This document shows positions 1,292-64,000 of a DNA stretch of 64,000 bases, in pieces. Position numbers and translations under genes: made by a program. This DNA comes from Eledone cirrhosa (taxonomy: Eukaryota), in the NCBI GenBank assembly GCA_964016885.1, contig OZ024762.1, positions 1,426,001-1,490,000 on the forward strand. Direction: 5' to 3'. Position 1 is the stretch's first letter; each line of letters opens with the position of its first letter. Under the pieces are notes generated by a model. It had not been told where the DNA came from. It saw only the letters and a program-made list of their open reading frames with translations, and did no database searches.

Positions 1292-1356
1292 AAGAGGGGT
1301 GTAAAACAAACATAACTAAACAATTGTCTAAATAAATAAATATGCTGTTTCTGCAG

Positions 1357-2662
1357 AAATACCTACAGAAAAAGCAACCAATACCCGAGGAAGATATTTA
1401 CGAAATTGTACAACAATTTAAAGAGTCACGTTGTAAGGAAGGCAATGATGATGATGACTTGATTGAAGCAATGAAAATGTCGGAGTTCAGACCAATGTCT
1501 CTCAACTCAGCCACGTCTTCCAATGTCCAGCGTGGTAAAGATGGCAATGACAGCTCTAGCAGCAGTGAGTCCATATCTGTTGACGATTCTGATGACTTAG
1601 AGGCAGCAACTAGTAAGTCAAAACGTGGTCGTGGTCGAGGAAGAGGTGCAAAAGAAGCGGCCACTTCACGAGGGCGAAGTCGTGGACGAGGTTCTCGAGG
1701 CTCAAGATCTAAGGCTCCGGTGGCCAGTGGCAACAGATTAACCTCAGATATATCCTCTTACTACTCTCAGAGATCGAAACGGAAACTCTCAGAATCGGAG
1801 TAAGTATCCAGTTTTACCATTTCAGTAAATCTTGCATAGGTTTAGCCCAGATAATTAGTGGAGTTGTTACCCTAGATAATTAGTGGAGTCGTTAGTGTTA
1901 GTCCAGATAATTAGTGAAGTCGTTAGCCCAGATAATTGGTGGAGTCGTTAGTGTTAGTCCAGATAATTAGTGAAGTCGTTAGCCCACATAATTGGTGGAG
2001 TCGTTAGTGTTAGTCCAGATAATTAGTGAAGTCGTTAGCCCAGATAATTGGTGGAGTCGTTAGTGTTAGTCCAGATAATTAGTGAAGTCGTTAGCCCAGA
2101 TAATTGGTGGAGTCGTTAGTGTTAGTCCAGATAATTAGTGAAGTCGTTAGCCCAGATAATTGGTGGAGTCGTTAGTGTTAGTCCAGATAATTAGTGAAGT
2201 CGTTAGCCCAGATAATTGGTGGAGTCGTTAGTGTTAGTCCAGATAATCCAGTGAAGTCGTTAGCCCAAATAATTAGTGGAGTCGTTAGTGTTAGCCCAAA
2301 TAATTGGTGGAGTCGTTAGTGTTAGCCCAAATAATTAGTGGAGTTGTTAGCCCAAATAATTGGTGGAGTCGTTAGTGTTATCCCAGAGGGTAGTGAGGGA
2401 GATGCTTTGAAACAGTTATTCTAATTTGTGGGTGGCTAACTCCAGCCTAATAGCAGCAAGTAGGGGTTCAGTACAGGGGCCCAGAACACCAGAAATCTCC
2501 ACAGGTTCAATGAAAATTCTATTGACATATATCTGTCTCCACAGCAGTGACGACAACAGCAACATTTCAGATGTAAAAAGTGAGAGGACCTCAAAAAGAA
2601 CTCAGTCAACTTTGAAAACACTTTCCATGAAACGAGGAGTCATGTTCGAGGACGATGATTAA
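1357..2662 (+). CDS. MRE11: Double-strand break repair nuclease MRE11, last two coding exons (1357-1799, 2545-2662)
   Basis: KYLQKKQPIPEEDIYEIVQQFKESR...DDDDLIEAM...DDSDD...KRGRGRGRG aligns by eye with the MRE11 C-terminal region and GAR motif (human [26 protein letters not shown]...EEDDEVREAM...DSDDS...KGRGRGRG). The end KRGVMFEDDD resembles KGVDFESSEDD. Splice sites: ctgcag acceptor at 1356, GTAAGT donor at 1800, cacag acceptor at 2544 (phase-compatible), TAA at 2660-2662. Confidence 0.88.
1840..2387. repeat. ~56-bp composite minisatellite
   Basis: Tandem gttagcccagataattggtggagtcgttagt-gttagtccagataattagtgaagtc. Confidence 0.9.
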
Positions 2663-4840: not shown

Positions 4841-6270
4841 TGTTACCATCTTGAAGTAAGTATATTTACTTATATATTGTTCTGAATATATGTACAAAAT
4901 ACTAGTAGTTCTTCAATGGCTATATACCCTGTTATATATGTACAAAATACTAGTAGTTCTTCAATGGCTATATACCCTGTTATATATGTACAAAATACTA
5001 GTAGTTCTTCAATGGCTATATACCCTGTTATATATGTACAAAATACTAGTAGTTCTTCAATGGCTATATACCCTGTTATATATGTACAAAATACTAGTAG
5101 TTCTTCAATGGCTATATACCCTGTTATATATGTACAAAATACTAGTAGTTCTTCAATGGCGATATACCTTGTTATATATGTACAAAATACTAACAGTTCT
5201 TCAATGGCTATATACCCTGTTATATATGTACAACATACTAGTAGTTCCTCAATGGCTATATACCCTGTTATATATGTACAAAATACTAGCAGTTCTTCAA
5301 TGGCCATATACCCTGTTATATATGTACAAAATACTAGTAGTTCCTCAATGGCTATATATCCCGTTATATTTATATATATAGAAACGGAAAGAAAGCGAGA
5401 TAACACTCGGAATATGTCGTGTTATCTCGCTTTCTTTCCGTTTCTTTTTTTTTAAAAAAGAAAGAAAACTTTAGCTATAAGTATGACTATTTGACTCTGT
5501 AGAATTGCGGCTTGTGCGTGGCGCTGCACGTAGCGTTTCTGGCTTCGCTGTCGTACTTCGGTATGGCTGACCACTCGATCGTGTCTGAAGTTCGAATCGT
5601 TGCGGGGTCGGCCGGGACCGTTGCAGGCTGGCTTTATGCTGGCCTGCTCTCCCGCCTCGCATGAGTTTTTGCCAAAAAATTCGATGAGAGTTATCTCCCC
5701 CTGAATTGAATTATTTGCCCTTTGTTGACATTGAGCTACTTCCGGTTTGTGGAAATCTACTTCCGTTGTTGTCATTTTTTTTCAATGTATTGAAGAAGTA
5801 ACATCGTTTTATTTACTCTGGGACTATTACTGACATTGGTTTGGATCTTACTTTCGTGTTGAGAGGTTTGTAGAGTTCTATTTTAATACATTGCTACCAT
5901 ATACACACCTAACCTTCTCCATTATATACACTCACTCCTGTAAACAGTGTAGAGTTCTATTTTAATACATTGCTACCATATACACACCTAACCTTCTCCA
6001 TTATATACACTCACTCCTGTAAACAGTGTAGAGTTCTATTTTAATACATTGCTACCATATACACACCTAACCTTCTCCATTATATACACTCTCTCCTGTA
6101 AACAGTGTAGATATTGAGACATAAAAGCCAGTAATGTCTCCTATGTACAAGTCTCTCTAGGATATTGAGACACTACACTAGACACTCTCTCTATAAAGTA
6201 GACAATGTAATGTTTTTTTTATTAGAAATTCATTCTAAATGCCTTTCTTCTCAGATATTTGAGACAAAGC
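4841..6270 (+). repeat. Left arm of a long inverted repeat (48-bp array, 27-bp hairpin, GC-rich core, 79-bp array)
   Basis: Reverse complement of ~13525-15734. In the core, position x pairs with 20050-x (ORFs 5452-5775 and 14275-14598 mirror each other). Confidence 0.92.
5509..5670 (+). ncRNA. Candidate structured Pol III small RNA (~160 nt), family unidentified
   Basis: TATAAGTA at 5476, G start at 5509, B-box match GTTCGAATC at 5590-5598 and T5 at 5666-5670. The 5' GGCUUGUGCG-U-GGCG pairs with the 3' CGCC-U-CGCAUGAGUU. Internal hairpins include GUCGUAC(UUCG)GUAUGGC and GCAGGCUGGC(UUUAU)GCUGGCCUGC. Confidence 0.6.
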
Positions 6271-6949
6271 TACATTTTACTGTCTTTCGTTTGTTAGAGA
6301 TCCCCATTCATTCTTGTAAACAATGTCTTTCACATACCAGACTACATTTTACTATATTTTGGAAGAAACCTCTCCCTGTTAGAGATATACATATCTTTCA
6401 AACACTCGTTGATATTCTTGAGACATACCAGACTACATTTTACTATCCTCTGTAAGTAGGAATAACTTTAGAGATCTACACAAACGTCACTAGACATATA
6501 TATTTCTTTAACATCCAACATGGTAGCTTCTCTCCTACCATCGCACGTAAAGAAACCCTTTCGTGTCAACCATGTTTATTATCCTATTATATATTAAGGG
6601 CCCTATCTCTCCTACTTACTAACTGCCCCCTTTTTATTCCATAATGGGAACTCAATCCAGCTTCAAACTGCTGTGGTCATTCTAGAGCATCTTTACTATT
6701 GCTCTGCCATGTCTAGTTATACACACAACGTTTACCAGACACTCTACATACTTCCCAAGAAATTAGCTGGAGTTTACTTCTATATACACACCCTTTCCTG
6801 ACAATATATACCTTACACCTCTTGTAAGTAAACACTCTACTCCACATATAAACCTCACCTGTCTCCTATTACCAACAAGCTGCTACCTCCATCCAGGAAG
6901 ACAGGTAAATAATTGCCAAATTAAAGAATAAACAAAACTTTTGCGTTGT

Positions 6950-8282
6950 TGCTTTCTTATTATTATTTCTTCTATATATATATACTTATGTATATATATA
7001 TACATAACTATATACTGTATATATATATATACAGTAATCTAGAGTTGCTTTATTATTATATCTTCTATATATATATATATACAGTAATCTAGAGGTGTTA
7101 CTTTACTATTATATCTTCTATATATATATATACAGTAATCTAGAGGTGTTACTTTATTATTATTTCTTCTATATATATATATATACAGTAATCTAGAGGT
7201 GTTACTTTACTATTATATCTTCTATATATATATATACAGTAATCTAGAGGTGTTACTTTATTATTATTTCTTCTATATATATATATACAGTAATCTAGAG
7301 TTGTTACTTTACTATTATTTCTTCTATATATATATACAGTAATCTCGAGGTGTTACTTTATTATTATTTCTTCTATATATATACAGTAATCTAGAGGTGT
7401 TACTTTATTATTATTTCTTCTATATATATATATACAGTAATCTAGAGGTGTTACTATATTATTATATCTTCTATATATATATATACAGTAATCTAGAGGT
7501 GTTACTTTATTATTATATCTTCTATATATATATATACAGTAATCTAGAGGTGTTACTATATTATTATATCTTCTATATATATATATACAGTAATCTAGAG
7601 TTGTTACTTTATTATTATATCTTCTATATATCTATATACAGTAATCTAGAGGTGTTACTTTATTATTATATCTTCTATATATATATATACAGTAATCTAG
7701 AGGTGTTACTTTACTATTATATCTTCTATATATATATATATACAGTTATCTAGAGTTGTTACTTTATTATTATATCTTCTATATATATATATACAGTAAT
7801 CTAGAGGTGTTACTTTATTATTATAACTTCTATATATATATATATACAGTAATCTAGAGGTGTTACTTTACTATTATATCTTCTATATATATATACAGTA
7901 ATCTAGAGTTGTTACTTTATTACTATTTCTTCTATATATATATATATACAGTAATCTAGAGGTGTTACTTTATTATTATAACTTCTATATATATATATAT
8001 ACAGTAATCTAGAGGTGTTACTTTACTATTATATCTTCTATATATATATACAGTAATCTAGAGGTGTTACTTTATTATTATATCTTCTATATATATATAT
8101 ACAGTAATCTAGAGGTGTTACTTTATTATTATTTCTTCTATATATATATACAGTAATCTAGAGGTGTTACTTTACTATTATATCTTCTATATATATATAC
8201 AGTAATCTAGAGGTGTTACTTTATTATTATTTCTTCTATATATATATACAGTAATCTAGAGGTGTTACTATATTATTATATC

Positions 8283-8322
<40 letters not shown>

Positions 8323-8890
8323 TAATCTAGAGGTGTTACTTTATTATCATTTCTTCTATATATATATATACAGTAATATAGAGGTGTTACTTTATTATTA
8401 TTTCTTCTATATATATATATATACAGTAATCTAGAGGTGTTACTATATTATTATATCTTCTATATATATATATACAGTAATCTAGAGGTGTTACTTTATT
8501 ATTATATCTTCTATATATATATATATATATATACAGTAATCTAGAGGTGTTACTTTATTATTATTTCTTCTATATATATATATACAGTAATCTAGAGGTG
8601 TTACTTTATTATTATATCTTCTATATATATATACAGTAATCTAGAGGTGTTACTATATTATTATATCTTCTATATATATATACAGTAATCTAGAGGTGTT
8701 ACTTTATTATTATTTCTTCTATATATATATATACAGTAATCTAGAGGTGTTACTTTACTATTATATCTTCTATATATATATACAGTAATCTAGAGGTGTT
8801 ACTTTATTATTATATCTTCTCTATATATACAGTAATCTAGAGTTGTTACTTTATTATTATATCTTCTATATATATATATATATACAGTAA
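6950..8890. repeat. ~50-bp minisatellite with a variable (TA)n
   Basis: Tandem cagtaatctagaggtgttactttattattatatcttc(ta)n. Confidence 0.95.
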
Positions 8891-11800
8891 TATATATGTG
8901 TATATATATATACATACATACGTATGTATATATATATACACGTATGTATTTATATATACATATGTGTGTATATATACATACGTATGCATATATTCATACG
9001 TATGTATATATACATACATATGTATGTATACATACATATGTATATATATACACATATGTATTTATATATACATATGTATGTATATACATACATATGTATA
9101 TAGATACATATGTATATACATATGTATGTATATATATACATATGTATGTATATATACATATGTATGTATATAAGCATACATACGTATGTATATAAGCATA
9201 CATACGTATGTATATATACACATACATATGTATGTATATATACACATACATATGTATGTATATATATACATACATTGATATACACATACGTATGTATGTA
9301 TACATACATACGCATGTATGTATACATACATACGCATGTATACATGTATACAGACGTATGTATGTATACATACATACGTATAGATATATACGTATGTATA
9401 TATATACATACGTATGTATACATATGTATGTATACATACGTATATATGTATACATACGTATGTGTGTATATATACATACGTATGTATAGATACGTATGTA
9501 TGCATACATACGTATGTATATATACATATGTATGTATACATACATACGTATGTATACATACATACGCATGTATATATACATACGCATGTATATATACATA
9601 CGTATGTATATATATACATACGTATGTATGTATATACATACGTATGTATATATATACATACGTATGTATACATATACATACATATGTATATATACATACA
9701 TATGTATATATACATACGTATATATATACATACGCATGTATATATACATACGTATGTATATATATACATACGTATGTATGTATATACATACGTATCTATA
9801 CATACATATGTATACATACATACGTATATATACATGCGTATGTATATATACATACGTATGTATACATATACATACGTATGTATACATATACATACGTATG
9901 TATATATATACATACGTATCTATACATACATACGTATGTATATATATGCATACGTATGTATATATACATACGTATGTATACATACATACATATGTATGTA
10001 TACATACGTACGTATATATACATACGTATGTATATATACATACATATGTATACATACACATACATACGTATGTATATGTATACATACGTATGTATACATA
10101 CGTATATATATATACATACGTATGTATACATATACATACGTATGTATATATATACATACGTATGTATACATATACATACGTATGTATATACATATGTATG
10201 TATATATACATACGTATGTATACATACGTATGTATACATATACATACGTATGTATATATATACATACGTATGTATACATATACATACGTATGTATACATA
10301 TACATACGTATGTATACATACACATATGTATGTATACATACATATGTATGTATACATACGTATGTACATATGTATGTATATATACATACGTATGTATGTA
10401 TACATACATACGTATGTATATATATACATACGTATGTATACATACATACGTATGTATATATATACATACGTATCTATACATACATATGTATACATACATA
10501 CGTATGTATATATATACATACGTATGTATATATACATACGTATGTATACATACATACATATGTATGTATACATACGTACGTATATACATACGTACGTATA
10601 TATACATACGTATGTATATATACATACGTATGTATATATACATACGTATGTATATATACATACATATGTATATGTATACATACACATACATACGTATGTA
10701 TATGTATACATATACATACGTATGTATATATATACATACGTATGTATATACATACGTATGTATATATACATACGTATGTATACATATACATATACATACG
10801 TATATATATACATACGTATGTATATATATACATACGTATGTATATATATACATACGTATGTATACATATACATACGTATGTATACATACACATATGTATA
10901 CATACGTACGTATATATACATACGTATGTATATATACATACGTATGTATATATACATACGTATGTATGTATACATACATACGTATGTATATATATACATA
11001 CGTATGTATACATACATACGTATGTATACATACATACGTATGTATACATATACATACGTATGTATACATATACATACGTATATATATATACATACGTATG
11101 TATACATATACATACGTATATATACATACGTATGTATACATATACATACGTATGTATACATATACATACGTATGTATATATATACATACGTATGTATATA
11201 TATATATACATACGTATGTATATATAGACATACGTATGTATATATACATACGTATGTATACATATACATACGTATGTATACATATACATACGTATGTATA
11301 TACATACGTACATATATACATACGTATGTATATATACATACGTATGTATACATACACATATGTATGTATACATACATATGTATACATACACATACGTATG
11401 TATATATACATACGTATGTATATATACATACGTATGTATACATACATACATATGTATACATACATACGTATGTATGTATACATACATACATACGTATGTA
11501 TACATACATACGCATGTATATATATACATACGTATGTATATATATACATACGTATGTATATATATACATACGTATGTATATATATATACATATGTATATA
11601 TATACATACGTATGTATATATACATACGTATGTATATATACATACATATGTATATATATACATATGTATATATATACGTATGTATATATATACATACGTA
11701 TGTATATATATATACATATGTATATATATACATACGTATGTATATATACATACGTATGTATATGTATATATATACATATGTATGTATATATACATACGTA

Positions 11801-12106
11801 TGTATATATATACACATGTATGTATATATATATACATATGTATATATATATATACATACGTATGTATATATATACATACGTATGTATATATATACATATG
11901 TATGTACATATATATACATACATACGTATGTATATATATATACATACGTATGTATATATATATACATACGTATGTATATATATACATACGTACGTATGTA
12001 TATATATGTACATACATATGTATATATATACATACGTATGTATATATATATACATACGTATGTATATATATATACATATGTATATATATATACATACATG
12101 TGTATA
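8890..12106. repeat. ~3.2-kb alternating purine/pyrimidine compound microsatellite
   Basis: Mosaic of TA, TG, CA and CG dinucleotides dominated by the self-complementary tacatacgtatgta. Confidence 0.97.
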
Positions 12107-12803
12107 TCTAGAAATTAAACTATTATATACCTTCTCTTGACATAACTCTATATAATCTGAAGATAGAAACTCCTTGGATACTGTATATAAAGTTATCCAC
12201 TAGCTACTGTATATATATTCTATCTCACTAGACATACATATATAGCTGTGTATACATATACACACAGACTGAATGTTTCTAAAAGTAAGTTGAATACATC
12301 CTATATATAGAAATGTATATAATCCTCTGTAGAGGTATATATAATACTAATTGTATCTAGATTCATTAATATATACACACACACTTACTGTCGAGGCTGC
12401 AATAACTGTATATATTAATACATACTACTAAGTATATATACACAGAAAGCTACATCTTTATATAAATATTCTTCACTGTGTATATAATTAACTTCCTCCT
12501 ATGAACTGTCTAGATACATTTAGAGATAAAAAGGTATGATGTGTATATAGAATGTTTCTATATATACAGTGAGACAAAGAGAAGTGTATTCCAAAGAATA
12601 TAGAAACACTAATATATATACTTTCTAAATATAACAAGTACAGTAAATATATGTTATACACTTATATAATAAAGATGTATAGAATATGTATACACTTTCT
12701 TCTCTATACAGGACCAAGTACATGTAGCTACAACCTCTTCTGTGAAATAAAAGGCAATAAAGTACATTTTGTTGTTGGAGTTTTTTTATTTCTTCAATCT
12801 GTG

Positions 12804-12844
<41 letters not shown>

Positions 12845-13235
12845 TGTGGTGGCCTGACGTAGATCTTCAACATACCTGGAAAGAAACAAACGAGATGTTA
12901 ATGAATATAAAAACAATGACAGACATACAGCTATATATATATATAGAAACACCTGCTTCCTTTTATTCCATTAAGACAACACTATATATAAAGTTATATT
13001 GATATATATATACTGTCTCTTAACTTACAGCTATATTTATATTATTAAATGTAGGTCTGTATGTATATATACACTTATATTGATATATACTGTTTGTGTG
13101 TATACAATACAGTCTCCTGGTGTAAGGAACAGGTATTTACAGTACCTAGCAATATTTATGTGTCTCTATTATATAGTTTCTTATACACCTCTAGAGATGG
13201 GTATCAAACTCAACATAAAGGTAATTAGATATATA

Positions 13236-13513: not shown

Positions 13514-14379
13514 AATATAGATAAGTTCAGTTTTATGTCTCAAATATCTGAGAAGAAAGGTTAAAACATTACAATGTCTACTTTATAGAGAGAGAGTGTA
13601 TAGTGTAGTGTCTGAATATCAGAAATGGAGTTAAAACATGTCTGTATATCCTAGAGAGACTTGTGTACATAGGAGACATTACTGGGTTTTATGTCTTAAT
13701 ATCTACATTGTTTACAGGAGAGAGTGTATATAATGGAGAAGGTTAGGTGTGTATATGGTAGCAATGTATTAAAATAGAACTCTACACTGTTTACAGGAGT
13801 GAGTGTATATAATGGAGAAGGTTCGGTGTGTATATGGTAGCAATGTATTAAAATAGAACTCTACACTGTTTACAGGAGTGAGTGTATATAATGGAGAAGG
13901 TTAGGTGTGTATATGGTAGCAACGTATTAAAATAGAACTCTACACTGTTTACAGGAGAGAGTGTATATAATGGAGAAGGTTAGGTGTGTATATGGTAGCA
14001 ATGTATTAAAATAGAACTCTACACTGTTTACAGGAGAGAGTGTATATAATGGAGAAGGTTAGGTGTGTATATGGTAGCAATGTATTAAAATAGAACTCTA
14101 CACTGTTTACAGGAGAGAGTGTATATAATGGAGAAGGTTAGGTGTGTATATGGTAGCAATGTATTAAAATAGAACTCTACAAACCTCTCAACACGAAAGT
14201 AAGATCCAAACCAATGTCAGTAATAGTCCCAGAGTAAATAAAACGATGTTACTTCTTCAATACATTGAAGAGAAATGACAACAACGGAAGTAGATTTCCA
14301 CAAACCGGAAGTAGCTCAATGTCAACAAAGGGCAAATAATTCAATTCAGGGGGAGATAACTCTCATCGAATTTTTTGGC

Positions 14380-14541
14380 AAAAACTCATGCGAGGCGGGA
14401 GAGCAGGCCAGCATAAAGCCAGCCTGCAACGGTCCCGGCCGACCCCGCAACGATTCGAACTTCAGACACGATCGAGTGGTCAGCCATACCGAAGTACGAC
14501 AGCGAAGCCAGAAACGCTACGTGCAGCGCCACGCACAAGCC
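14380..14541 (-). ncRNA. Second copy of the candidate structured Pol III RNA
   Basis: Reverse complement of 5509-5670 with no differences seen by eye; the TATA element is retained upstream. Confidence 0.6.
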
Positions 14542-15365
14542 GCAATTCTACAGAGTCAAATAGTCATACTTATAGCTAACATTTTCTTTCTTTTTTAAAA
14601 AAAAAGAAACGGAAAGAAAGCGAGATAACACGACATATTCCGAGTGTTATCTCGCTTTCTTTCCGTTTCTATATATATAAATATAACGGGATATATAGCC
14701 ATTGAGGAACTACTAGTATTTTGTACATATATAATAGGGTATATGGCCATTGAGGAACTACTAGTATTTTGTACATATATAACAGGGTATATAGCCATTG
14801 AAGAACTACTAGTATTTTGTACATATATAACAGGGTATATAGCCATTGAGGAACTGCTAGTATTTTGTACATATATAACAGGGTATATAGCCATTGAAGA
14901 ACTACTAGTATTTTGTACATATATAACGGTATATAGCCATTGAAGAACTACTAGTATTTTGTACATATATAACAGGGTATATAGCCATTGAGGAACTGTT
15001 AGTATTTTGTACATACATAACGTGTGTTGTATCTTTGAGCAAGACACTTTATTTCACTGAAGAAGTGAGATGATAGGGACTGGGGTCTATATCATTCCAC
15101 TGCAAAGTGGACGTGGAGGTGCCAAGCATCCAGCTGTAGAAATCAAACCAGAATCAGTTCCCGTCCCACCCTTGCAAGCAGGGAAAAAGCGGATGTAAAA
15201 ATGAAATGAAATAACAAGATACACACAAATAGAAGGGGGTCGACCTGTCAATATTTTCAGCAACTTCACATTCTACGTAAATAAGGTTTCTCAGACAAGA
15301 TAAGGTCACCTTATATTCGAGTATATTAACTGAGAAACACCTAGTATTTTGTACATCTATTCTTC

Positions 15366-26069: not shown

Positions 26070-29000
26070 CTAAATATTGTTATATATACATACTCAAAGA
26101 ATTAAGTTGGTGTTAAGAAGGGCATCTAGGTGTAGAAACCCAGCCAAAATCAGTTCTGTATGAGCAAGACAAGGTCACCTGACCTAGCATTGCCCAAAAC
26201 AGAACAACTTGTGTAACCCACACTAGGATGGAAGAATGGACATTAAACAGCGATGATGATGACGTTGAAACATACCCGAATGTGTGAGGAATCCTTGTAT
26301 AAAATTCATCACATGCTGAGGTGAGGCTGGTACCAAAGTTTTTCTTTTCTATACAATCAGCAATTTTTTCCAGGGCCTGGTAACCAGCATTGATCTGTTT
26401 CTCTGTTAAACGACCTGGCAAAGATTAATTAAAGGAACTAATTATAAAATTGATCATCCATTGATGGATTTTTATTTGATATGAGCAATGTTTGACAACA
26501 ACAACAACAACAGTAACAACAACAGCAACTTACCGAGAGGAGCTTTCTGTGCATCATATTTCATTTCAACGACAGTTTCTTTCATTGTGTTAATGTCAGA
26601 GATTAACTGAATTAATTTCTGCAACAGAACATGGATAAAGTAACTTATAGTGTAGATAAGCAGGCAGAACATGGATATTATAGCTTATTATATATATATA
26701 TATAAATGTAAGAAGCAAAGAAAATTTCAGTGATACGAAAGATTTCCTGGTGGAAGCTCAGGTAGACTTTGGGTTTATATCTAGTTTTGGGGTGAAAATC
26801 CAACGAATTTGAGAGGTCCACATAAGCGTTATATATATGTACGTGTGTAAAAAGTAAACAGAAATAACAACACAATCGGTACAGTATATGGAAGGGATAC
26901 ATTAGGTTAACGCTTGAAATAACAGGAAGAGGGTCTTAACGTTTCAGACGCAAGTCCTTCATCAGAAGAAAGAATGAGAAATAAGATAGATTGAGGGGAC
27001 GGAAAAAATGTCTTTAGATAAAAATAACAGGTCCATTCATGTTGACATCTCTTGGATATATATATATATATGTGTGTGAGTGTGTGACAGCTCACACCTA
27101 TGTGTATGAGTGTGTGTGACAGCTCACACCTATACAGGTTTAGCTGGCCTCCTCCAAGGTATATCTCGTTGGAGGTGTCTTGGGTAATTAATAATAGGGA
27201 CCCCAGTCCCTATCATCTCATTTCTACAGCTGAGTAAACTGGAGTAACGTGAAATAAAGTGTCTTGCTGAAGGACACAACACATCACCCGGTCCGAGAAT
27301 TGAACTCACAACCTTTTGATTACAAGCCCAATGCTCCTACCACTAAGGCATGCGCCTTCACGATATATATATATATATATAGTGAAAAGATAACAAGGAC
27401 GATTGGTTACTCCTTCATTACATTTATTGGTTGGTGACTCGCGTCAATGTGATGGAGGAGTAACCAATCGTTCTTGTTGTCTTCACTATAATACACTCTG
27501 TCTAGCTCTACACCTCGACACAGAAGTGAACCTAAACATCGAGTGCTCACCCGGGTGAACCTACAGTAACTCCAAGTTACACTCCCTGTATATATACACA
27601 CACACACACACGCACATATCTATATAGTTATAGGGGTGGCGTATTGACATACAGCATTTCTTGGGTATGAAATCGCTCCTATACCAGCAACAAACATATA
27701 TCCCTGAGAGGGAGAGGGGAGTGTTGCAATATCAAAGACTTACCTGTAGAGATGGATCGAGTGTAGAATCAGGAACCTTGCAAATACTTTCTTTCTTTAT
27801 GTCGACACCATCAACATCGTCTTTTCCCTGTTAAACATAAACAACAAATATTCTGTCATATATATATACATATATATATAGAGAGAGAGAGGGAGAGGGT
27901 GAAATTAGAAATAGCACTGAAAATATATTTAAGGGTCTGTTTTTCCTTTCTTTGATTCATCAAAGTGACATTATTGAAAAAATGAGAAGGACAATTCTTT
28001 AAAAAAAAAAGAGAAGTATAACCGGTTTCGATGTATTAGTAAAATTAATCTTATCAAATGCTGAGTATTACAATTAAAAAGAATTAATAAGGATTAAAAA
28101 CTAAGAATTAAAGATTTAAAATTAAGTGTTGAGGTATGTTTTTTTCATCTTTCTTGTTGCAAATTCAAAATATGGAGATCACAAGACAAAGACAATGGAA
28201 AAAACACCTGAAAGAGGGACAATCCCATCTCACCAGATAACCTCTGGAGGTCTCTATGGTTTCGGTGCATTAAGGTTGATATGAAGATGAAGGTGATGAT
28301 TACCTCGGTACTGTAATCCATTTGGATCAAATCATATTTTCCAGAGACCTTTTTAAATTTGTGTCGTTCACTCCATTCATTCTTGGTTTTATCCTGGAAT
28401 CTACAAGAAAACAGAAAAGAGAAATATAATTAAACAAACCATCTAACCTTGACATTGGTTCTAAGATACCAGACCACCTGGCCCTGACCTTGGTTATAGG
28501 ACATCAAACCATCTGACCGTGACCCTGGTTCTAGTACATCAAACCACCTGAAACTGACATTAGTTGTAAGATATCAAACCACCTGGTTCTATGACATTGG
28601 TTCTAAGATACTAAACTATGTTTTAAACTGTTTACATTTATCAAAACCTTCCACCATTATTTTATATAATCACCTCTGTTATCTTCTAAACTTTCCATAG
28701 TTTAGGGTTCAATAACCAAACAATTATTTTCCATAGTTTAGGGTTCAATAACCAAACAATTATTTTCCATAGTTTAGGGTTCAATAACCAAACAATTATT
28801 TTCCATAGTTTAGGGTTCAATAACAAAAACAAAACAATATCTAACTTACTTTTTGGTGAAAACATCAATGGCACTGTTTAAGTTGGAGACACAGTTGACA
28901 AGGTTGGTCTGACCTTTATAGCCAACACGGCCCCATCTCAACCACACGTAGTAATTAGGTTTACTGTCTTGTTGGAGAAGTTGTATCAAGTAGAACTTGT

Positions 29001-31061
29001 TGTTGTTGTTAAGTGCATTGGTCTAGAGAGGAGAGGAGAAAAGAATATCTCAGGGAGAGTGGATGTTAAAACAACACATACATATATACACATACATATA
29101 TATACACATACACATACATATATATACATACACATACATATATATACATACACATACATATATATACACATACATATATATACATACACATACATATATA
29201 TATACATACACATATGCAAAAATGCATTATTAGACAATATGGAAAGTTTTAAGTGTAAAATAGAAAATTTTACCTGGTTTAGCATGCAGTCCCATACATC
29301 ATTTCCTTGTGTGAAGACATGGACACGACGCAACATTGGACATTCACTATCAACTGGGGCCTTTCCCTTGACCACAACTGTTTTTACTGAAATATACAGT
29401 AATTTATTATCATCAATGGGGACTGTATTGACTCAAATATAAGCTGACCCGTCCCCAACTATTTTATATCTGACTAATATGTAAAAATCCTAACGTCGTT
29501 TGTAAGTCAACACATGTTTACATGGTGAGGTTTTGATATTCTCATGAGTAGAGAATATATTTATGAAGTTTTAATATTCTGGTAATTAAAATGTTTTAAG
29601 TGTCGTTTAGAATAGTTTTTGTTTCACAACTCCATTACATAACAATGTTTTTACCAATTTCCACCCATTTTTAAGGCCGTATTCATTCAAAACATATCAA
29701 CCACAACAGGAGATATGAATTTCATGTCCAAAGTGAAACAGGTGTAATATTCACCTCTAAAGTGAAACAGGTGTAATATTCACCTCCAAAGTGAAACAGG
29801 TGTAATATTCACCTCCAAAGTGAAACAGGTGTAATGTTCACCCCCAAAGTGAAACATTTGACCAGGTAAAGCTATCAAACATGTTATGGAGGAAATGAAA
29901 TTAGAAAGAAGAAAGCTTTAACCCTTTAGCAATTACATTACTCTATATTTAACATTGTATTGTCATGGTAAACATTTTATTTCACATAATATTGAAGATT
30001 TTCATATTTATTTTGAGAACAATAATAACTTATCAGTATGAGTAACTGTAGAAAGAGGTGAAACAATTCTGGCCAGATATGGTTGGTTTGAACAGGAAGA
30101 GGTGAGAGAATTCTGGTCAAATATGACCAGATATATTCTAAAGGTTCAGTAATAGAACGACCACTTACTATCCTTGCTGTCCTCGTTGCTGTGTCCATTC
30201 TCTTCAGGCAATTCCTTCTTTATTTTGTTATCTCCCGAAGATGGACCGCTCTGCTTCCCAGTTTTCTTCCGGTTTGTCGTCGCCTGAGGCTGGGCTGCAC
30301 TTGTCTTGCGACTGCTGCGACTGCTACTACGGGAGTCGGAGACTGCGTCAGCTGAAGATGTGGAGCTTCCACCTGTGGGGTGAGAGAGAGGGGATGAAGG
30401 AGTGTGAGGGGGGTGAAGGAGAGTGAGGGAGAGAAGACAAACAGTAAACCTCTCATTGAAACATTAATGGGTTCTGTTTCTCTCTAGTATAATGGCTGTG
30501 GCCATGCTGGAGGCCTTGGCATATGTATATTATAACTGTGTGTGTAAATATATATATATAAAGAAATGGCTTCCACAGGACTAGAACTGTTTCATTCAAA
30601 GGAAATCATCAGGAAAGCCGACTGTCATTTCTATATTAAAAATTTATACTCTGCTATGTATTGACTACCTTTCTGTGGTTACCCCCGATTGAACCCGGGA
30701 TACACATATACACATATATATATATCATGGAGGCACATGGCTCAGTGGTTAGAGCATTGGCCTTGCAATCGAAAGGCTGTGAGTTCAATTCTCAGACCGG
30801 GTGATGTGTTGTTTCCTTGAGCAAGACACTTTATTTCACATTGCTCCAGTTTACTCAGCTGTAGAAATGAGATGATAGGGACTGGGGGTCCCTATCATTC
30901 CACTGCAAAGTAGTCGTGGAGGTGCCACGGCAAAAAAGCACCCAGCACTCACTGTAAATGAGGTTGGTGTTAGGAAGGGCATCCAGCTGTAGAGATCAAG
31001 CCAGAATCAGTTCCCGTCCCACCCTTGCAAGCAGGGAAAAGCGGACGTAAAATGAAATGAT

Positions 31062-31093
<32 letters not shown>

Positions 31094-33239
31094 GTGGAAC
31101 CTCGGTTCACAAACTTAATTCACTCCTGAAGGTTGTTCGTCACTTGAAATTTTCGTAAACCGAAACTATTTTTTCCCCATGTGAAATGTTGAGAGAGAAA
31201 TACAGAGAGACTGTATGTGAAAGACAGATAGATATCATCATAGTAACTAACTACACAGCAAGTGATGCTCTCCCACCAATACTCCTAGCTTGTTGCCAAC
31301 GACTCCATCCGCCCGCCTGTGCTACAGGAGGAGGTAGAGGAAGTTAAGAGATAAAAAGTTGACTTACACTTGATTCTCTGCACTGATGAGATAATATTGT
31401 CCACCTCGTTGGACTGTTTCAGGGTGTGAAGGTCAATCATGTATGACTGGTTACTTGTTACAATGTCCACCGTTGGCATGGCCTTCCTGAAGGCCTTCTC
31501 TAAAGCCAGACTGGACGGGATACAATACATCTCCCAGCGGCCATCTTCACCCTGCCATTGCCAACTGTAATATTCTGGGAACAACGTAGAGAAAACAGAA
31601 GGAATAATTAATAACTGATATATAACAAAAGTGAAGGCGTGTGGCTGATTGGTGAGAGAACTGGATTTGTAATCGTGAGTACTTTTTGATATACCCAGAG
31701 TAAATCAATGAATCAAAACAAAAAAAGTAATTCATATTTTTTCTTCATGTTTTTCTGTTCAACTTCTAGCTGTCTGCTGAGTTCATGACCAATATATATA
31801 TATAAAGATATGAGGCACGACAGCTGAGCTCTTGCCGTTTCAACAACTAGTTCCATTCAGAATATATATATAAATACATATATATCATCATCATCATCAT
31901 TTTACGTCCACTTTTCCCTGCTTGCAAGGGTGGGACGGGATCTGATTCTGGCTTGATTTCTACAGCTGGATGCCCTTCCTAACACCAACCTCATTTACAG
32001 TGAGTGCTGGGTGCTTTTTTGCCGTGGCACCTCCATTTCTACAGCTGAGTAAACTGGAGCAATGTGAAATAAAATGTCTTGCTCAAGGAAACAACACATC
32101 ACCCGGTCTGAGAATTGAACTCACAACCTTTCGATTGCAAGGCCAATGTTCTAACCACTAAGCCATGTGCCTCCATATATATATATATATATATGAGGTT
32201 GGTGTTAGGAAAGACATCCAGCTGTAGAAATCAAGCCAAAATCAATTCCCGTGGGAGCAAGACAAGGTCACCTGACCTAGCATTGCCCAGAACAGGACAA
32301 CTCATCTAACCTATGCTAGCGTGGAAGACTGGACGTAAAACGATGATGATGATACACACACATATATTTATACACATATACACACATGTATAAAGAGAAA
32401 AAGAGGACAGAAAATAAATCAATAAGAGGGATAGCTACAGGAGGTTGACGAAAAAGATAGAAGAGTGCTCCTTTAAGGGGAGATAATATAATCACCTTTA
32501 TCCTGCTCATCCTGAAAACAACAACGAATCCGTATTGCACCACGGGCTGATCTACCAGCTGTTGTTTTCTGTGTCAGATGTTCTAAGGATACATACAGCT
32601 TGCGGCCCCTGATACCAGACACTTCAACCTGGTGAGAAAGAAAATACATTTATAAATATCACCACCATCACCAGCACCGTCACTACCACTTTACAGAGTG
32701 TACTGGGTGTATTTTATCATGACACCAACACTACCACTTTACAGAGTGTATTGGGTGTATTTTATCATGACACCAACACTACCACTTTACAGAGTGTATT
32801 GGGTGTATTTTATCATGACACCAGCACTACCACTTTACAGAGTGTATTGGGTGTATTTTATCATGACACCAGCACTACCACTTTACAGAGTGTACTGGGT
32901 GTATTTTATCATGACACCAGCACTACCACTTTACAGAGTGTATTGGGTGTATCTTATCATGACACCAGCACTACCACTTTACAGAGTGTACTGGGTGTAT
33001 GTTATCATGGCACCAGCACTAGAGAGGTTGTCAAAGAAATAGACTTACTTCAGTATCGCCACCATTATATCGGTCTGTTAACTGTTCGGAGATGTTATCC
33101 GAGTAAGGCACCCATTTCCCAGTATCTTCATAGTGCCACTTTACTTTGAGTCCATCAATTTCCGATAACACATCCATCGGAATGGAAGTAGTTTTAAGTT
33201 TCTTGCCTGAGGTGCCATTACTGTCGACAACAGTTGCTG
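18629..33239 (-). CDS. PARP2: Poly(ADP-ribose) polymerase 2-like (WWE-WWE-WGR-regulatory-catalytic); 17 exons found, start exon not located
   Basis: Phase-consistent GT-AG exons: 33049-33239, 32496-32628, 31368-31574, 30169-30372, 29274-29386, 28850-29022, 28304-28400, 27744-27827, 26534-26618, 26276-26414, 24874-24937, 23820-23951, 22547-22662, 22182-22281, 21254-21352, 19830-19954, 18629-18782 (~737 codons). Motifs: [21 protein letters not shown]...WLRWGRVG (WGR), KAPLGRL...[21 protein letters not shown]...[34 protein letters not shown]. The H-Y-E triad is intact. Confidence 0.92.
19975..21208. repeat. 28/31-bp intronic minisatellite
   Basis: Tandem atttccttaaatataatatataccccac(aac). Confidence 0.95.
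22706..23340 (+). mobile_element. 5'-truncated RTE-clade LINE with a (GAT)n tail
   Basis: Frameshifted pieces [27 protein letters not shown] and [16 protein letters not shown]...RDKWRDAV; ends in gatgatgatgat. Confidence 0.85.
23979..24470. repeat. 48-bp minisatellite derived from a SINE segment
   Basis: About 10 copies of aagtggtcatgtaggtgacacaacaaaaagcacccagtccacactgta, running into SINE sequence (gttaggaagggcatccag). Confidence 0.9.
26934..26969 (-). ncRNA. Minimal type I hammerhead ribozyme motif
   Basis: UCUU-CUGAUGA-a-GGAC(UUGC)GUCU-GAAA-CG-UU-AAGA, with a loopless palindromic stem III (ACGU). Confidence 0.65.
27205..27360 (-). mobile_element. tRNA-derived SINE (family 1)
   Basis: Reverse complement of the element at 30729 (A/B boxes plus agcaagacactttatttcac core). 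Confidence 0.8.
28690..28826. repeat. 36-bp minisatellite
   Basis: Four copies of ttccatagtttagggttcaataaccaaacaattatt. Confidence 0.85.
30568..30619 (-). ncRNA. Type I hammerhead motif in a short dispersed repeat (relatives at ~33965, ~35300, ~37250, ~37370)
   Basis: GGCUUUC-CUGAUGA-UUUC(CUUU)GAAU-GAAA-CAG(UUCUAGUC)CUG-UG-GAAGCC. The sister copies have GUA at the cleavage triplet. Confidence 0.6.
30729..31062 (+). mobile_element. tRNA-derived SINE (family 1), near full length
   Basis: A box tggctcagtggttag, B box gagttcaattc, CORE-like ccttgagcaagacactt...ctgtagaaatg and an RTE-like 3' end. Other copies at ~31885-32175 (-), ~49230-49430 (-), ~55240-55355 (-) and ~33300-33400 (+). Confidence 0.85.
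32682..33021. repeat. 48-bp minisatellite
   Basis: Seven copies of actaccactttacagagtgtaytgggtgtattttatcatgacaccarc. Confidence 0.9.
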
Positions 33240-39776: not shown

Positions 39777-40172
39777 TCAAGTTCCTTTTTTCATGGGGAG
39801 AGATACTATTTCAGTTCTAGGAATCCAAGCCATTTTCTTGTGGGCTTCTGGGAACATATGTTCCATGTTAATATCCACACATAAGAGAACTCCTTCGTGA
39901 CTGTTGTCAGGGCCCTCTCGGCACATGTCCAAGCAGGTTAGAAATTGAGTAAAAGTTTCTTCAAGAATAGATTGGCTTACCAAGCAGGTATCTCTACATA
40001 CTTCATAGCCTGATGGATAATATTGGTTTGGTTGACAGTCTATTCCAGTCATCATACATGTCATACATTTAGCAAAGCAATTCATTTTACTGTCAATAAA
40101 CCACTGGCAGGACACATGCGACACCAGTGCAGCAAACAGCAAACTGACGATCAAATACCGACAAATGTGCAT
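39777..40172 (-). CDS. Secreted Cys-rich protein A1 (131 aa, unknown family)
   Basis: ATG, hydrophobic signal MHICRYLIVSLLFAALVSHVSC and 9 Cys in the mature part. A pyrimidine-rich acceptor (ctctctttcccttcacag) lies ~30 nt upstream of the ATG. The paralog at 60079 keeps the ORF open. Confidence 0.85.
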   Translation of the reverse strand: MHICRYLIVSLLFAALVSHVSCQWFIDSKMNCFAKCMTCMMTGIDCQPNQYYPSGYEVCRDTCLVSQSILEETFTQFLTCLDMCREGPDNSHEGVLLCVDINMEHMFPEAHKKMAWIPRTEIVSLPMKKGT

Positions 40173-43204: not shown

Positions 43205-43573
43205 TTACATTTTACAGTCGACATCAAAGAATGTTTGGTAAGTGTCTGGTCGTCTTTTTCGAAAGTAATTAGATCGACATTTAAGAAATGTGGCGGGTTT
43301 TACAATGGCGCTACGACATACTGCCAAGCCATAGATGACAATATTTGGATTTCCTTCAGGAAGATCTTTCACAGTGATATTACACTCGGCACAGCAAGCA
43401 ATTGTACCATTTGTGGCAGGAACACCTCTTGTGCAGTCGTAGCCAAAGAGCAGACACATCAGGCAGCTACTAACACAGTTAACACGTGAATCAAGGAAGC
43501 ATTGGGGGTATCTCCTCCCCACGGAGACTGCAGTTATTGCTAGCAGAATAGCAAGTAGCACTTTCACTGCCAT
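43205..43573 (-). CDS. Secreted Cys-rich protein B1 (122 aa from the ATG at 43573)
   Basis: Signal MAVKVLLAILLAITAVS, 11 Cys and an NGT sequon. An acceptor (tcattgcag) lies 9 nt upstream of the ATG. Paralog at 63496. Confidence 0.85.
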   Translation of the reverse strand: MAVKVLLAILLAITAVSVGRRYPQCFLDSRVNCVSSCLMCLLFGYDCTRGVPATNGTIACCAECNITVKDLPEGNPNIVIYGLAVCRSAIVKPATFLKCRSNYFRKRRPDTYQTFFDVDCKM

Positions 43574-44030
43574 CGTGTGCAACTGCAATGACAAATAAAA
43601 TAGATAAATAGTAAATAAAGTAGAAGATTATTGTTGTCACTGTTCTTATTTAGCCCTAGGTCAGCTGTGGTCAAACTGACCTATAATCAAAGGCAATCTA
43701 ACCACGACCATCCCATCTTTACAGATATTGTGTTTATCTTCAGAAATGTCAAACTGTTTGGTAGAAATTATCCAATATGTTTTTCCAATTCTTCAAGATG
43801 GCAGAATGTGACTTGAGGTAATTTTAGACAGCTATTTCTAGCATGCCAAGTGAAAAGCTACAGGTGCATGTGTTTTTATTGGCAACATGACCCTCCCAAA
43901 ATATGACAGTGAAAGAGTGAAGAATAACATGGTCAACAGTTGAGTCAAAGAACGCCGAACGCTAAAACTATCAACAATACACAGTATTTACCTCTAACTG
44001 GATTACCTATAACGATAATTTGTGATCCCT

Positions 44031-60078: not shown

Positions 60079-60459
60079 TCATGCTTGAGTTGTTGAATCA
60101 ATTTGAAGAACCCAAGTCAATTTATCGTAGACTTCTGGGAAAACAGTTTTCATATGTTCTCTCACACATGATCCAAGAATGTTGTGGTCTCTTATAAGGT
60201 TTTCTCGGCAGGTGTGCAAGCTGTTTTGAATTGCCGGAAGAGTTTCTTCAAAGGTACCGGGTCTTAGCATGCAGTTAAATTCACATTCTTCATAGCCTGA
60301 TGGATAAGGTTGGTGTGGTTGACAGTCTATCCCAGTCATCATACATGTCATACATTTAGTGAAGCAATTCAGTTGACCATCATAAAACCACCGGCAGGAC
60401 ACATGCGACACCAGTGCAGCAAACAGCAAACTGACGATCAAATACCGACAAATGTGCAT
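60079..60459 (-). CDS. Secreted Cys-rich protein A2 (126 aa)
   Basis: Signal peptide identical to A1, 8 mature Cys and the same upstream acceptor. Confidence 0.85.
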   Translation of the reverse strand: MHICRYLIVSLLFAALVSHVSCRWFYDGQLNCFTKCMTCMMTGIDCQPHQPYPSGYEECEFNCMLRPGTFEETLPAIQNSLHTCRENLIRDHNILGSCVREHMKTVFPEVYDKLTWVLQIDSTTQA

Positions 60460-60597
60460 TGTAGTGTATTTTTTTTATTGATGAAAGAAATCTGTGAAGG
60501 GAAAGAGAGAAGAAACTTCTTATCATTTGACTGATTCTATTGTTAATATAAACTACATATCTATAGTTAAGTAATAAACAACATAAGACAATTATTC

Positions 60598-63495: not shown

Positions 63496-63867
63496 TTACA
63501 TTTTACAGTCGACATCAAAGAATGTTTGGTAAGTGTTTGGTCGAACTTTTTCAAAGAAATTAGAGCGACATTGATGAAAGTCTGTGGGAAGTCCGTTACT
63601 GGCACTACGACATGATGCCAAGCCATAGACGACAATATTTGGGTTTCTTTCAGGAAGTTGGTACACATTGATTTTACAGTCTTCACAGCAAGCATTTGTA
63701 CCATTTCTGATGGGAGAATCTATTGGACATTTCTTGCCAAGGATCAGACACATCAGGCAGTTACTAACACAGTTAACACGTGAATCAAGGAAGCATTGGG
63801 CTTGTCCCTGCACCTCGGAGACTGCAGTTATTGCTAGCAGAATAGCAAGTAGCACTTTCACTGCCAT
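63496..63867 (-). CDS. Secreted Cys-rich protein B2 (123 aa from the ATG at 63867)
   Basis: Signal identical to B1; all 11 Cys and the NGT sequon are conserved. Confidence 0.85.
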   Translation of the reverse strand: MAVKVLLAILLAITAVSEVQGQAQCFLDSRVNCVSNCLMCLILGKKCPIDSPIRNGTNACCEDCKINVYQLPERNPNIVVYGLASCRSASNGLPTDFHQCRSNFFEKVRPNTYQTFFDVDCKM

Positions 63868-64000
63868 CGTGTGCAACTGCAATGACAAATAAAATAGATA
63901 AATAGTAAATAAAGTATAAGATTATTGTTGTCACTGTTCTTATTTAGCCCTAGGTCAGCTGTGGTCAAACTGACCTATAATCAAAGGCAATCTAACCACG

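Follow-up and report, generated by a model that had tools for sequence, protein, structure and literature searches.

Here we describe a multicopy octopod family whose members, on comparison of their sequences, would each encode a discrete Pol III transcript of 160-190 nt and, overlapping it, a spliced non-coding transcript of Pol II, a reading to which we give a probability of roughly 55%. In the proposed mechanism, TFIIIC would bind the B box together with a weak A box and place TFIIIB at the TATA box; Pol III would then start near 5507-5509 and stop at the T-run, and the RNA would close into a terminal stem, a G-U-rich central helix of ~19 bp and a long 3′ hairpin. Pol II would begin either at this TATA box or in the pyrimidine/ACTTCCG stretch 3′ of the terminator, and its transcript would be spliced at a conserved donor and end about 1.1-1.7 kb downstream. 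The family would spread by DNA-level duplication, gene conversion would likely homogenise the arms of each inward-facing pair, and old dispersed copies would decay in a process of birth and death. To our knowledge, new Pol III RNA families are rare in animals. If the reading is true, cephalopod RNA biology would gain a new player, with more than 140 copies that retain a fold, are laid out as palindromic pairs and carry an overlapping spliced unit. The family would also offer a clean example, among non-coding genes, of birth-and-death evolution and of homogenisation between arms.

The window, a stretch of 64,000 nucleotides from Eledone cirrhosa, contains two facing copies of the structured body (Table 1), which the sequence-only reading had already paired and which are identical over 162 of 162 nt. 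That reading counted two copies; the genome has at least 143, as exact matches of one 18-mer. The TATA-like box TATAAGTA does begin at −33, the T5 proposed as the terminator is present, and the B box GTTCGAATC (+82), which had been called perfect, has matches within the window in the two copies alone. The adjoining ACTTCCG/CGGAAGT motifs, which we take to be ETS-like, were found at 5738 and 5759. Judged by the A-box and B-box promoter consensus sequences, the TGGC A box placed at +11 is rightly positioned but a weak match, and a second candidate lies at +23. There is a G at the supposed start, 5509, but the U6 and 7SK genes of the same genome have their TATA at −30, so the start is perhaps G5507. 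What the sequence-only reading overlooked was the 27-bp inverted repeat upstream and the conserved splice donor downstream. The inverted repeat, which may be a DNA palindrome or an RNA hairpin, is perfect in young copies and imperfect in older ones; considered as a pre-miRNA, it has 8 wobble versus 10 A-C columns (20 variants) and no strand bias, and three supplementary files of PMC9699675 held no match to it. A protein-coding small ORF was rejected, as the 33-codon ORF of the window copy does not keep its frame among the copies; no reading frame is conserved among them, and 1-nt and other frame-shifting indels are frequent.

Table 1. Coordinates of the inward-facing pair and its associated features in the window.
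Feature	Position	Strand	Remarks
Structured RNA body, left copy	5509..5670	+	terminal stem, central helix, 3′ hairpin, T5
Structured RNA body, right copy	14380..14541	-	same sequence as left copy
TATA-like box TATAAGTA	5476..5483	+	mirror 14567-14574, -
Two imperfect A-box candidates, +11 and +23	5519..5542	+	from sequence; variants tallied across copies
B box GTTCGAATC	5590..5598	+	mirror 14452-14460, -
T5, predicted Pol III terminator	5666..5670	+	T-run tallied in family
27-bp perfect inverted repeat upstream of TATA box	5380..5445	+	mirror 14605-14670
Two ACTTCCG motifs 3′ of terminator	5738..5765	+	from sequence
5′ splice donor GAG/GT	5860..5871	+	exon end 5865; mirror exon end 14185, -
Short second exon, right copy	12770..12875	-	acceptor 12875; AATAAA 12785-12790; common to other pairs
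Predicted 3′ end, left copy's transcript	6895..6980	+	conserved AATAAA (6927) and GT-rich stretch
Left arm, inverted duplication	5027..6111	+	98.1% identity to 13939-15021; 48-bp and 79-bp minisatellites
Right arm, inverted duplication	13939..15021	-	arms ~1.1 kb each
TA-rich satellite spacer between converging units	7018..12107	.	separates the two arms

Throughout the 3.0 Gb of genome searched, 100 of the 143 exact matches of the 18-mer were listed, and a 23-mer from the body had 70 exact matches, on four large and two small contigs; all 70 of the latter are called close copies here. As DNA queries, the window copy and a diverged copy returned 251 and 257 candidates, and the best 40 of each set have identities of 73-100%. 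The module has a fixed order of 27-bp inverted repeat, T/A tract, TATA box, body, T-run, ACTTCCG motifs and splice donor. Family homology spans about −250 to +375 of it, and the flanks common to most copies cover 200-250 nt upstream and about 200 nt downstream. In one subfamily (loci L069, L071 and L082) the upstream TATA box and hairpin are replaced and the donor reads G/GTTGG.

Most close copies (56/70) stand as 28 convergent, inward-facing pairs 3.1-14.2 kb apart, with 2 outward-facing neighbours among the 70, while diverged copies occur in pairs and also as singles, as tandem triples and as copies nested ~1.7 kb upstream of a young copy. Identity to the partner lies above the median identity to other copies in 28 of 28 pairs, and in three isolated pairs the partner stands at 1.0 vs 0.944, 0.991 vs 0.80 and 0.998 vs 0.903 for the best other copy; in many clustered pairs, a copy in the neighbouring pair is as close as the partner or closer. 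One old pair carries a single LINE-like frame in both its arms. We infer that segmental duplication spread the family, with conversion between arms and flipping of the spacer, because the family's flanks travel together without target duplication, its arms vary, its outer flanks are swapped and its partners are close to each other.

Hundreds of dispersed copies, convergent units around a repeat spacer, an old decaying set beside a young burst, and minisatellites in the arms are what one might expect if the pair were instead a non-autonomous mobile element (DIRS-like, or else Foldback- or Mutator-like with promoters inside long inverted ends) or a palindrome that copies itself neutrally, the fold being then a by-product or a cis signal. 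We think this improbable, since none of the eight pairs inspected has a target-site duplication, arm length across the inspected pairs varies between 0.6 and 4.2 kb with differing outer ends, one set of two outer flanks recurs, swapped, in different pairs, and singles, tandem triples and nested copies exist. The coding frames among those listed belong just to inserted fragments, which we take to be LINE, Gypsy-like and Helitron-like. The same absence of target-site duplication at 8/8 pairs led us to reject a fixed-end TIR/Foldback transposon, and the idea of a ZNF promoter was dropped with no C2H2 frame among the frames listed. The octopod pairs would resemble MuDR/Foldback elements and Y-chromosome palindromes in being transcribed convergently out of inverted arms and in having homogenised arms with spacers that flip; unlike them, they lack a transposase, fixed ends and target duplication, and have kilobase arms on many chromosomes. 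A high-copy SINE, which had been named earlier as a finding that would overturn the small-RNA reading, agrees with the copy number but fails otherwise: the upstream promoter is co-duplicated, both flanks are shared, target duplication is absent and there is no tRNA match (ARAGORN on the window returned 0).

The copies have kept parts of the module that a Pol III gene would use. A strict TATA box is found in 65 of the 70 close copies, and a TATA in 21 of 28 diverged ones. All 28 BLAST-selected diverged copies have the B box GWTCGAAT, whose second position alternates between T (34) and A (25) in 65 motif-collected bodies; the B-box consensus tolerates either base there. A run of T4 or longer lies at +145 to +158 in every close copy (70/70; T5 in 65), and a premature T4 occurs in 2/70 close and 0/28 diverged copies, so that the B box and T-run are conserved and internal T-runs nearly absent, as in a type-2/hybrid Pol III gene. 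Diversity among the 70 close copies is 0.045 in the body, with the selecting 23-mer excluded, as against 0.116 over the remainder of the exon and 0.069 upstream; among 29 diverged rows, which were selected by a query spanning the body and the TATA region, the central domain has 0.138 and the other parts 0.26-0.33. The retained B box and T-run, a body conserved beyond its flanks and the folds of the young copies lend indirect support to the suggestion of the sequence-only reading that this may be a new small RNA, lineage-specific and of Pol III type.

The donor is kept nearly as faithfully as the terminator (67/70 close copies and 23/28 diverged copies), and selection may therefore act on a spliced RNA instead. 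The family's shared block stops at this donor, ~200 nt 3′ of the T-run, and between the two lie ACTTCCG in 56/70 close copies and CTTCCGG in 16/28 diverged copies. In young pairs a short AATAAA segment follows each copy at ~1.1-1.7 kb, the left and right segments being different. None of the sequencing runs covered is catalogued as RNA. In run X1, which has no library record, one contig jumps from the donor to 12875(-), behind a pyrimidine-rich AG; the genome has 0 matches to this junction, which suggests that the right copy yields a spliced transcript. The same run also covers upstream and intronic sequence, and one of its unspliced contigs crosses the T-run of a related copy, while by a 31-nt criterion no spliced X1 contig bridges the T-run. 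Two further runs, X5 and X6, which bear other organism labels and carry no weight here, contribute one low-depth contig each, over 5481-5754 and 5511-5653. The earlier worry that the element could be a Pol II promoter was thus partly right, as the locus also carries a spliced unit of Pol II type. On the opposite strand, GTAAGTA or GTAGGTA occurs at about −170 to −330 of the module in 12/28 diverged copies, and an outward-pointing AATAAA segment resembling the left 3′ segment lies at ~−1.4 kb (e.g. L039:4470-4505); the two hint at a unit transcribed divergently, or at what is left of an older partner.

Carried to its end, this evidence would make the body the structured 5′ portion of a non-coding Pol II RNA of ~460 nt that is TATA-driven, spliced and polyadenylated, with no free short RNA and with the B box serving as a TFIIIC-binding DNA element (chromatin or promoter) or as part of a helix. 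The shared block that ends at the donor, the X1 splice joint, the AATAAA exons conserved among pairs and the unspliced contig over the T-run all favour such an arrangement, as does the TATA box 31 nt upstream of a T/G step at 5506/5507, an ordinary spacing for Pol II. We nevertheless consider it rather unlikely that Pol II acts alone, because the T-run stands at the foot of the terminal stem in 70/70 close copies, diversity rises from 0.045 to 0.116 just past it, T4 is nearly absent inside the body, and spliced contigs leave the T-run unbridged.

The predicted fold is consistent with a discrete Pol III transcript. The window copy has a minimum free energy (MFE) of −74 kcal/mol vs −58.5 ± 3.7 for dinucleotide shuffles (z −4.15, equalled by 0/200), which bears out the high degree of structure first seen by eye; its antisense strand is also well folded (z −3.18), and sense beats antisense in only 22/32 family rows. 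All 14 pairs of the panhandle described earlier can form, 4 of them as G-U, but the MFE structure has 12; the 10-bp GC-rich stem does form in it, as does the C(UUCG)G tetraloop, which is not family-wide, with UUAU, UUAA or UUAG in older copies. The layout consists of a terminal stem, a central helix that joins the A-box-like strand to the B box, and a 3′ hairpin. The majority sequence of 23 old rows, 191 nt long and folding at −89 kcal/mol, has the same three domains, and both there and in the window copy the terminal stem closes directly 5′ of the T-run. A reading of the 3′ end as an Sm site followed by a hairpin was abandoned, as the hairpin is lost across copies.

With 33 substitutions relative to the old majority sequence, the window copy folds at −74.2 kcal/mol vs −62.6 ± 4.5 when the substitutions are placed at random (3/200). 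The same test gives p<=0.04 in 7 of 9 young rows, which represent about 4 lineages and in which misaligned stretches inflate the result, and it is passed by only 1/23 old rows; many old copies have deletions. For covariation, 38 representatives were reduced to an alignment of 32 rows: 4 copies whose 5′ parts are absent or rearranged were dropped, as were 3 that nearly duplicate the window type, and the window copy was added. Five pairs in these 32 paralogs changed on both sides vs 7.4 ± 1.8 in shuffles, and the covariation score was equalled by 50/500 shuffles. Wobble columns outnumber mismatch columns by 17 to 8 in the central domain, a borderline asymmetry (p 0.054) that is absent in the two other stems. 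Short of proof, such a pattern is what one would expect of a fold that functions in the expanding subfamilies, and of old copies in decay.

The sequence-only reading had pointed to Rfam, where the window and three copies match no relevant family; at E<=10 the three copies gave chance matches only, and neither vault nor Y RNA was among them, contrary to its idea of a divergent vault/Y-like RNA. In 15 loci of 10 kb each that surround other copies (150 kb in all), Rfam likewise had 0 matches, so the introns scanned hold no known snoRNA or miRNA. The family shows no match to RF00019 (Y RNA); a bulged stem that binds Ro60 is the Y RNA motif, and it is absent in the window copy. Across the whole genome RF00019 was not found among 51 scored candidates, which leaves the Y slot of this genome unfilled. 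Nor is the promoter of the type-3 kind used by Y/sbRNA genes: the octamer that accompanies the TATA at −30 in the genome's U6 genes is lacking, and an internal B box is conserved. No match and no profile match was obtained with RF00100 (7SK) or RF00026 (U6), whose own genes lie elsewhere, 7SK as a single match at C2:194684573-194684851 and U6 as a tandem array at C19:31.78-31.84 Mb. A likeness to the SRP Alu domain seen by eye was rejected because shuffles score equally; alignment of the family to the genome's SRP RNA does no better than shuffles do (166 of 500 and 343 of 2000), and profiles also found nothing. The SRP genes form a tandem array at C12:42.10-42.13 Mb. Taken together, the family RNA, likely a folded RNA of 160-190 nt, appears to match no catalogued RNA family.

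Vault RNA deserves separate treatment. In old copies an A-box-like TAGC..GG is followed by ACTTCG, by eye as in the genome's vault genes (TAGCCGTGTGG-TT-ACTTCG), and this strand pairs with the B-box region, so that one could imagine a remote, elongated vault RNA paralog that is still vault-binding. We regard such descent as very improbable. The corresponding vault feature, an A box followed by UUACUUCG and paired with the B-box strand, has its similar motif in old copies by eye but without significance. RF00006 gave no match, the vault profile against 32 family rows and the family profile against 4 vault sequences returned nothing at E<=100, a family covariance model found no match on the 4 vault loci, and pairwise family-vault alignment scores lie within shuffles (49 and 351 of 500). 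In vault RNA the B box lies near the terminal stem's 3′ strand; here ~67-70 nt separate it from the T-run, with the hairpin domain between. Canonical vault genes of 87-93 nt also exist in this genome, in a cluster on contig C3 with 14 of 17 matches over the Rfam cut-off. This cluster (C3:221183987-221251257) has at least 14 tandem genes in two types, 87 nt and 93 nt long, which have a TATA and an A box and no canonical B box, and is a useful by-product of the search.

Among known systems, the closest analogue in origin and spread is snaR, the Alu-derived small Pol III RNA genes of African great apes (PMC3045588), which are likewise lineage-restricted and structured; segmental duplication accounts for most of their spread, and a core of ~0.5 kb is set in variable flanks. 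No sequence relation to snaR is expected. Unlike snaR, the octopod family has no parent that we could find, and it is arranged in dispersed convergent pairs with a conserved splice donor. It is like vault RNA and nc886 in its internal A and B boxes, upstream TATA, terminal stem and pairing of the A-box strand with the B-box region, and old copies share with vault RNA the ACTTCG after the A-box-like motif; it differs in having no statistical homology, a length of 160-190 nt instead of 87-93 nt, an extra long 3′ hairpin domain, and an A-B spacing of about 50-60 nt vs 31-44 for human vault genes (PMC10491885).

Adenovirus VA RNA, EBV EBER and BC200/BC1 are RNAs of ~160 nt with a type-2/hybrid promoter, a mid-gene B box, long imperfect helices and a T-run end. 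The family resembles them in length, promoter type, mid-gene B box, long imperfect helices and T-run end, and departs from them as a host multigene family that has no Rfam match at E<=10 and whose core 20-mer is absent in viral contigs; metagenome contigs gave 3 chance 20-mer matches, all in unrelated GC-rich DNA. If the RNA exists, it might serve, like snaR, nc886 or VA RNA, as a ligand or decoy for dsRNA-binding proteins, a tentative role suggested by its long G-U-rich helices and by analogy. Animals of the octopod type have the heaviest RNA editing known. A bolder and quite doubtful extension of the analogy would be an octopod-invented, amplified Pol III regulatory RNA, with more than 100 genes in gene-converting inward-facing pairs, dual Pol III/Pol II units and long G-U-rich helices, acting as the host's own VA/nc886-like decoy to tune ADAR editing or Dicer. 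In the open papers searched we found neither a description of this family nor a new Pol III RNA family in cephalopods, "cephalopod" with "vault RNA" retrieved 0 papers, and the term "polymerase III" is absent from the accessible part of an octopus lncRNA study (PMC9115989).

The rest of the window carries several other features. Exons of a WWE-containing PARP2-like gene lie at 26113-26424(-) and 31285-31704(-), and one PARP2 exon places the genome among the octopods: its identity is 87% to Octopus bimaculoides and 80% to Argonauta hians, the sole two of 13 candidates at E<=1e-12. A repeated block contains two small ORFs of ~120-130 aa, each duplicated, at 39777-40172(-), 60079-60474(-), 43205-43627(-) and 63496-63921(-), with signal-peptide-like starts, many cysteines and no Pfam match; a homolog search with one of these cysteine-rich ORFs found none. 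An exon at 1336-1803(+) has an RG-rich acidic tail, with only a sub-threshold FoP match in Pfam, and resembles the C-terminus of MRE11. At the gathering threshold, the only Rfam match in the window is a weak tRNA-like one at 30738-30795(+), barely over the cut-off and not called by ARAGORN, which is probably the head of a SINE.
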